Of a stretch of 64,000 nt of DNA, positions 39,986 to 41,040 are shown one piece after another. Origin of the DNA: a virus; the IMG/VR virus record IMGVR_UViG_3300028029_000001, positions 1-64,000 of that record. One strand, written 5' to 3'. A program made the translations under genes and the position numbers. How positions within the stretch are numbered: the stretch's first letter is position 1; each line of letters opens with the position of its first letter. Under the pieces are notes generated by a model that was not told the origin of the DNA, ran no database searches, and saw nothing but the letters and a program-made list of their open reading frames with translations.

Positions 39986-41040
39986 TTAAATACCTGATTC
40001 TCCTTGGAATGTTTTTCTTGCCTGTATGAACCCTTGAAAGTTTCCACACCAACCATAACTGAATAGCTTACTACCATCATCTTTTGCTGGAATAGTTCTT
40101 GTATATGAATCCATCTCTTTTTTACTCATTGCTCTAGCAACATGTTCAAATGGTGACCAATGTCTCATACCTGACAGTCTATCATATAACTTGATGTCTT
40201 TCTCATAGTCATCTGTTCCATCATAGTTCATGTAAGACACTCTTGCACATCTTGCTACTGCTATTTTGACTTTAATATTCTCAACTTGCTTACCTACTTC
40301 TTTAGGTGAGTCTAGAAGTTGTAGAATCTTTTCTTCATCTATGTTATCTCCAAATGGAATATGCCATTCTCCTGCCTTCAGTTGTTTAGGTGTACTTTCA
40401 TTCATAGCATCCCACATCTGTTCTGCTAATCCCATTATGTGAATTTCTGCTCCACCTTTGTTTAACTTTAACCAACCAAGATTGTCTTCTCTATTTGGAC
40501 AACCCTTTTTTAACAATTCATTTTGAGAATATTCATTGAATATGTCTTCTCTACTTCTATATAATACACCATTAAACTCATATTGAGGACATCTTTGCTT
40601 AAAGAAGTTTTCAAATTCTGTGGCTGTTACTATTGCAGTGTGCCACATAAATGGTTCTAGTAATCTATTTACTGTTTGTTTGGTTGCTTAAAGTGGTTGC
40701 TTAAAGTGGTTGCCATAGTGATAGCATTATTCTTAGAAACATCCCAGCACTGTTCTAAGCAAAGACTATCTGCCTCTCTTTCAGTAAAATACTCAGTACC
40801 TTGCATCCCACTATGGTCTTTCTGCCAAGCTATTGGAATGAATGGGTCTTCTTTACATTTCTCTACCATTCTTTTAAATGGTATTGCTCTACTTGAAGCT
40901 GAGTTTCTTGAGAATACTCTATGTGTATTCAATTCTGCCAAGATATGTCTTGGAAATGTTAGAACAAAAGAAGTTATTCTCTGTCCATGTTCATTTTTAC
41001 TGTCTGCTATTATTTTAGCACTAATTTTTGATTTAGTCAT
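39986..41040 (-). pseudogene. thyX: flavin-dependent thymidylate synthase ThyX, frame interrupted by a 26-nt insert
   Basis: The N-terminal ORF has the ThyX motif (RHILAELNTHRVFSRNSASSRA). The C-terminal frame is coding upstream of its ATG (TKQTVNRLLEPFMWHTAIVTATEFENFFKQRC) and has HWSPFEH. 1055-26=1029 nt, i.e. 343 codons. Confidence 0.8.
40681..40713. repeat. 13-bp tandem repeat (2.5 copies) at the thyX frame break
   Basis: Plus strand tggttgc ttaaagtggttgc ttaaagtggttgc. Coding strand ATG GCAACCACTTTAA GCAACCACTTTAA GCAACCAAAC. Confidence 0.95.

Follow-up and report, generated by a model that had tools for sequence, protein, structure and literature searches.

The locus analysed here lies in a 64,000-nt stretch of phage DNA (the window), which has 29% G+C and carries every large ORF on the minus strand. 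The genes identified in it encode rIIA, rIIB, a UvsX-like recombinase, SbcCD, the RNR large subunit, a helicase, RNase H, a dNMP kinase and a portal protein, and the source of the window is a phage of virulent type, about 97.5 kb in length. A PHROG scan of 29 other ORFs, with annotation from 18.6 kb onwards, revealed no second thymidylate synthase (ThyA). On the minus strand, the thyX-like gene is flanked at 41045-42530 and 39253-39982 by several small ORFs (40-107 aa). The two that were compared with PHROGs, 41045-41338 and 41335-41658, have no match there, and the latter, a 107-aa ORF, shows a faint ExoX-like_C Pfam hint in precomputed annotation. At 51328-53140, also on the minus strand, a PAPS-reductase-like gene (phrog_424) adjoins a gene of phrog_421 (function unknown), a combination often linked to phage DNA or nucleotide modification modules. 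Two intergenic sites, 32296-32340 and 42278-42322, share a motif of about 45 nt, AAATATTTGGTATATATAAATATAAG(AT)ATATATATTTAGG as read on the minus strand. The 32.3-kb site is followed, some 25 nt downstream, by an ATG; the ORF with its start at 42264 begins shortly after the 42.3-kb site. The motif may be a phage promoter or regulatory element.

The thyX-like gene is divided between two reading frames. Its features are the following.

39986..41040, minus strand: the whole thyX-like gene, in two frames, identified from homologues, phrog_85 and an AlphaFold (AF2) model.
40669..41040, minus strand: upstream ORF of 123 aa, with the ThyX motif THRVFSRNSASSR and the C-terminal end ...AITMATTLSNHFKQPNKQ directly before the stop.
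39986..40687, minus strand: downstream frame, -1 relative to the upstream frame, opening just past the TAA at 40690-40688.
40681..40713, minus strand: perfect period-13 direct repeat, two units of GCAACCACTTTAA followed by GCAACCA.
40649..40687, minus strand: 13 conserved codons, ATKQTVNRLLEPF, outside both annotated ORFs and including the invariant residues K121, Q122, N125, R126 and E129.
40672..40687, minus strand: the sole overlap (16 nt) in which both frames are open, between the TAA of the downstream frame (40690-40688) and the TAA of the upstream frame (40671-40669).

By homology, the gene is a member of the ThyX / flavin-dependent thymidylate synthase superfamily. It matches phrog_85 'thymidylate synthase' with E = 6.9e-64, and a search of 5.8 billion protein clusters returned about 8000 homologues (E <= 1e-3) of 330-400 aa, the best of them at 64% identity. 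These homologues bear precomputed PF02511 (Thy1) annotation. Pfam alone is borderline, the window's C-terminal half scoring 22.5 bits for a cut-off of 24.8. Phage records that match the gene number 1034; those nearest to it, at about 46%, are from Cellulophaga and Flavobacterium phages. The ThyX motif RHRxxSxxxxSxR is found at residues 39-51 (THRVFSRNSASSR) with its first R replaced by T, and H40, R41, S44, N46, S49, S50 and R51 are invariant in the family. An AF2 model of the repaired protein reaches a pLDDT of 93.5 and a pTM of 0.91; its top Foldseek matches in the PDB are all ThyX or PolB, with probabilities of 0.98-1.00 and target-normalised TM values of 0.3-0.6.

The family as a whole is apparently circularly permuted with respect to canonical ThyX, the segment order A-B-C having become B-C-A. 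The ThyX motif (THRxFSRNSASSR) occupies residues 39-51, the NRLLEP...NFFxLRC block lies at 125-151, and the block AARVS...GHETPFEH, which is N-terminal in T. maritima ThyX (residues 21-62), is found at 260-303 in the phage family. Partial Foldseek PDB alignments agree with the permuted order; hhalign with a doubled sequence gave a single local alignment, which weighs neither for nor against the order of the motifs. A literature search for circular permutation of ThyX found no description of it.

How is the gene broken? An earlier note on this DNA had described thyX as split into 40669..41040 and 39986..40648, and the ORF coordinates agree (123 aa and 220 aa). The homology of the upstream ORF covers residues 1-115 of the family and reaches as far as TTLSN(H). 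In the downstream frame the first ATG, at 40648-40646, begins the 220-aa ORF (40648..39986). Re-read on the minus strand, 40716-40646 runs ATG GCAACCACTTTAA GCAACCACTTTAA GCAACCAAACAAACAGTAAATAGATTACTAGAACCATTT ATG, with TGG next, which is the junction that the note had given; the downstream frame is indeed coding ahead of its ATG, being open for the 13 codons ATKQTVNRLLEPF. The gene has the makeup of a frameshift pseudogene: its frame is broken relative to full-length homologues, and its halves are homologous to them in different frames.

At the junction lies the period-13 repeat, with copy 1 of GCAACCACTTTAA at 40713-40701, copy 2 at 40700-40688 and a third GCAACCA at 40687-40681. The heptamer is present, as had been reported, both at the start of the supposed insert (from 40713) and at the point where the frame would resume. 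TRF calls the repeat with period 13, 2.5 copies and 100% matches. Its run of 20 consecutive matched bases is unique in the window apart from a hexamer microsatellite array, and a comparable run arose in 0 of 60 order-2 Markov simulations of 64 kb. Since the repeat is non-random, a templated event is implied. Further copies of the 13-mer in the window do not rise above chance-level 2-mismatch matches, and on this ground we rejected a dispersed mobile mini-element.

The microsatellite array is a separate feature. It lies at 35876-36071, inside ORF 35408-36118 (minus strand), and consists of about 33 copies of ACCATA in a hexamer/18-mer arrangement. It encodes about 65 residues of a (Y/D/N)G dipeptide repeat (GYGYGYGDGYGNGDGDGYG...), close to the N-terminus of a protein of 236 aa, whose only PHROG match is weak and to a group of unknown function.

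When the number of 13-nt units is varied from 0 to 6, the frame is open only at 0 copies, where it measures 1029 nt; one copy brings a TAG into frame and three or more bring a TAA. The statements that the frame stays shut after deletion of one copy, running into TAG, and opens after deletion of both (26 nt) were thus correct. Only half of the accompanying claim, that zero copies alone would be functional, can be kept: zero is the only open state and three copies hit the TAA, but the zero-copy form is without the conserved linker.

Does removal of the 26 nt then restore the gene? The earlier note had taken these nucleotides for an insert and their precise removal for a repair. Comparison with homologues contradicts it. 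Among 120 listed homologue proteins 119 are full length, and in every one of these 119 the linker before TKQ comprises at least 8 residues (87 have 8 aa, 11 have 9 aa and the others more), TKQ itself being present in 117. Each of the 40 closest homologues, when aligned, has about 8 or more residues from the conserved Ala to TKQ. The family linker follows the pattern A-x-x-L-[SN]-[SN]-x-G-V, after which comes the invariant TKQ; within the 8-residue linkers, L occupies position 3 in 64 of 87, with N/S at position 4 and S/N/E at position 5. In frame 0 the supposed insert reads T-T-L-S-N-H-F-K, and its TTLSN fits this position-specific pattern; the homologue P0003 reads AISTA-TALNNSGL-TKQLCNRLLEPF at the junction. 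Scored with the family HMM, frameshift repairs that keep the linker (TTLSNHF kept) reach 573-576 bits, whereas the zero-copy product reaches 557.8 bits, 15-18 bits below these simple repairs. In the AF2 model, TTLSN forms the last 5 residues of helix 95-115, HFKAT a loop and KQTVNRLLEPF helix 121-131, the helix of the invariant TKQxxNRLLEP, so that a zero-copy protein would lose the helix end together with the entire connecting loop. The T. maritima ThyX segment ELIESGV-PREVARIVLP also pairs with the linker, in a sub-alignment that is weak on its own, and from this pairing the linker seems to be a feature of the whole superfamily. Judged by their fit to the homologues, the '26 nt' belong for the most part to the gene's native sequence, which here encodes an 8-9-residue linker. 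Alignment with thyX of related phages, which the earlier note had proposed as a check, settles the reading in favour of a frameshift pseudogene.

The lesion itself is placed by codon alignment with two relatives (L007 and L008), HMM ranking and linker statistics.

40688..40692, minus strand: the lesion, TTTAA, 5 nt in place of one linker codon.
Window: GCA ACC ACT TTA AGC AAC CAC [TTTAA] GCA ACC AAA CAA
L007: GCA GAG ATG TTA AGT TCA ATA [GGA] GTA ACT AAA CAA
L008: GCT ACA GCA CTA AAT AAT TCT [GGA] CTG ACA AAA CAG

The codon replaced by TTTAA is GGA in both of these closest relatives; of the 87 homologues whose linker has 8 residues, 49 have Gly there. This amounts to a net +2 nt, or to -1 nt if the ancestral linker had 9 residues. 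L008 comes from a contig of 102 kb that is syntenic (dNMP kinase, RNase H, helicase, thyX), and its thyX is intact. Nearer relatives of the junction were found neither by megablast against 50,697 phage records nor in exact and gapped pattern scans of viral, metagenome and genome contigs; a search for related loci with the 220-aa ORF gave 47% at best, and no relative above 64% amino acid identity turned up in any collection searched.

A route to the present sequence can be proposed from its microhomologies. The replicating nascent strand would slip back 13 nt on GCAAC(CAC) and re-copy CTTTAA/GCAACCA, and would then re-align forward by 11 nt on the next GCAACCA. An 11-nt deletion and a 13-nt duplication, as separate events between GCAAC repeats, would be an equivalent path. 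Either way, one or a few original linker codons would have been overwritten by a copy of the neighbouring CTTTAA/GCAACCA. This use of three GCAAC(CA) microhomologies would be the simplest route. The one-copy form is out of frame, and its linker, at about 4 codons, is too short for a family whose minimum is 8; this excludes a single clean 13-nt tandem duplication in a functional ancestor. It counts against the explanation that we favour that no single simple mutation suffices, two slippage steps or one complex event being required. In its short perfect tandem repeat at the lesion, its bounds of GCAAC/GCAACCA microhomology, its frame broken relative to full-length homologues and its want of recoding signals, the locus resembles slipped-strand or template-switch pseudogenes of the Streisinger/Ripley type; it differs from them in that there is here no single clean tandem duplication.

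Thymidylate-synthase genes in two pieces are known from other phages. A thyX match in one piece, covering at least 80% of the query, was obtained in 1024 of the 1034 phage records, and the two-piece matches among those listed all belong to Flavobacterium FPSV phages. In FPSV-S29 (L006, MK764449.1; 1498-3431), thyX consists of a 240-aa and a 130-aa CDS parted by a GIY-YIG nuclease gene, an intron- or intein-like arrangement. The closely related FpV phages have an uninterrupted thyX with an HNH endonuclease gene adjacent, and thyX looks like a hotspot for homing elements in the FPSV/FpV group of Flavobacterium phages. The window shares with T4 td and with FPSV-S29 thyX a member of this gene family in two pieces. 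Those splits, however, span about 0.8 kb, have a nuclease ORF inside and lie at about residue 240, whereas here there is a 2-nt frame defect at about residue 117 with no intervening element. A scar left by an intron or homing endonuclease was rejected on this difference in position from the GIY-YIG split of FPSV thyX.

Which other histories or readings of the junction deserve weight? A literal 26-nt insertion into a functional ancestor without a linker would explain why removal restores the frame, and the GCAACCA flanks resemble a target-site duplication. It would, however, leave this lineage alone without a segment found in 119/119 homologues and apparently also in canonical ThyX, and the inserted DNA would have recreated the linker length and the L-S-N pattern of the family by coincidence; we consider it barely credible. 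No better placed is a slipped-strand ON/OFF contingency switch, one of four options in the earlier note, in which gain or loss of the 13-nt unit would toggle thyX expression. A perfect tandem repeat does lie inside the coding region, but its unit is present in only 2.5 copies, and of 0 to 6 copies only 0 leaves the frame open, with the conserved linker then deleted, so that a family-like protein results at no copy number. Copy-number variants did not turn up in pattern scans of the viral, metagenome and genome collections, and no relative has the repeat at this site. The switch is extremely unlikely. Translational bypassing, a further option of that note, would have peptidyl-tRNA-Thr leave the ACC in copy 1 (40710-40708) and land on the identical ACC 26 nt downstream (40684-40682), inside the matching GCAACCA heptamer, giving ...AITMATKQTVNR... 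and restoring the frame. In size the gap is similar to the byp elements of Magnusiomyces capitatus mitochondria, which are bypassed inserts of 27-55 nt, dispersed in many copies per genome and absent from homologues. Matching flanking codons are a further likeness, but the element here is at a single site, is single-copy in the window, occurs in no relative and is homologous to the family linker. The comparison with T4 gene 60, which has a 50-nt coding gap, is similarly divided. Identical take-off and landing codons (here ACC/ACC) and a frame restored by skipping are common to both. In gene 60, however, the gap is foreign to homologues, whereas here the skipped stretch encodes a conserved part of the protein. 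The take-off codon is followed by ACT (Thr) and not by a stop, and a take-off stem-loop is absent, the MFE of -18.6 kcal/mol not differing significantly from that of shuffled sequences (-17.0 +/- 3.2; z = -0.51). The product, lacking the linker of 119/119 homologues and scoring 15-18 bits lower, would be deprived of the conserved helix end and the loop that follows. With three of the four testable gene-60 features failing, a hop is highly improbable.

A -1 ribosomal frameshift, at low level or programmed, would instead yield a full-length enzyme that keeps the linker. It would be confined to the 16-nt overlap, 40672..40687, since both frames are open nowhere else. Either the P-site tRNA-Lys would slip from AAG to UAA, giving ...HFK-ATKQ..., or tRNA-Asn would slip from AAC to AAA, giving ...FKQPN-QTVNR...; the junction peptide of the shift product would be ...SNHFKATKQTVNR. 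In its favour, 40687-40672 can be read in both frames, the ...HFKATKQ... product, at 573 bits, comes near the best repair and has a pLDDT of 98 in the region, and the gene is otherwise without decay. Yet the AAG to UAA slip, the only one that preserves TKQ, mismatches at codon position 1, and the AAC to AAA slip destroys the invariant T120 and K121 and reaches only 565 bits. From 40720 to 40669 there is no slippery heptamer X_XXY_YYZ, the overlap has no homopolymer, A/T runs included, of 4 or more, the site is conserved in no relative, and a downstream stimulatory structure is absent at -5.5 kcal/mol (z = -0.35, pseudoknots not explicitly modelled); with z values of -0.51 and -0.35, RNA structure was rejected as a recoding stimulator. 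None of 80 related IMG/VR viral loci has a family match in more than one frame segment. Frameshifting at the overlap is very unlikely. Taken more broadly, the chance is very slim that this undecayed gene is still expressed at full length through non-canonical recoding, be it a -1 shift without a recognisable slippery site or a 26-nt hop, with the period-13 repeat as the signal. If true, this would be a second natural example of bypassing in phages, or a shift site of a new class. Recoding has no support in the sequence, and the absence of other decay, which is also expected of a functional recoded gene, is the sole fact that leaves room for it. Could the phage, finally, really have an intact thyX, the broken one being a library or amplification artefact or a minority allele? 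The sequence of the locus is an exact substring of a Logan contig from SRR8439058 (6,275 bp), matches the ENA MEGAHIT contig k141_1023112 (ERZ27262693, 97,510 bp) just as exactly, and has both its protein fragments in JGI/IMG, a third source. An assembler artefact is very unlikely because the 20-nt self-overlap of the repeat is shorter than any assembly k-mer, and, with two contigs identical to the window and both fragments in the third source, the remaining option of the earlier note, an assembly artefact, is improbable. The sources probably all go back to one sample, each fragment forms a cluster of its own, and polymerases can make template-switch duplications in vitro; the gene is otherwise pristine, and an intact allele may co-exist in the population. 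Against this, independent assemblers gave the same consensus, a 33-nt repeat cannot confuse de Bruijn graphs of k = 31 to 141, an in-vitro artefact is not normally dominant in a consensus, and an intact, near-identical protein is absent from the 5.8 billion clusters. We regard such an artefact or minority allele as quite unlikely.

Measured against the lineage, the frameshift at the linker is very recent. Of the 118 columns conserved to 90% or more, the repaired protein deviates in 1, a count lower than in 46 of 53 intact homologues (6 tie and 1 has none); at the 80% level it deviates in 4 of 152 columns. Additional degenerative changes, looked for in the conserved columns as a sign of a pseudogene, amount to that 1 in 118, which for a pseudogene fits only a very recent lesion. 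All five invariant residues are, moreover, retained in the 13 untranslated codons. In its present form, the gene would yield a 123-aa N-terminal fragment and at best a 220-aa C-terminal fragment. Since no product would contain the helix with K121, Q122, N125, R126 and E129, the enzyme, and with it each of the fragments, is most likely inactive. A functional enzyme of two fragments was rejected as unlikely: neither piece has helix 121-131, and the downstream frame offers no ATG, GTG or TTG before 40648.

Taken together, we favour, with a probability of roughly 80%, the view that slippage recently gave rise to a real frameshift, that an accessory thyX-like gene is inactivated by it and that the gene is an ordinary pseudogene. 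The option of a recent inactivating insertion came closest of the four in the earlier note, being right about a recent lesion and a pseudogene and mistaken about a foreign insert, the linker being native in 119/119 homologues. The event is of an ordinary, already known kind, and no new recoding signal is involved. It calls for caution in annotation: a short perfect repeat with matching flanks, whose removal restores a frame, can mimic a bypass element or a mobile mini-insert, and comparison with homologues unmasks such an 'insert' as native coding sequence partly overwritten by templated slippage. For the phage, a thyX-like gene that is probably non-functional means that dTMP supply depends on the host, and the phage presumably relies on host dTMP synthesis.
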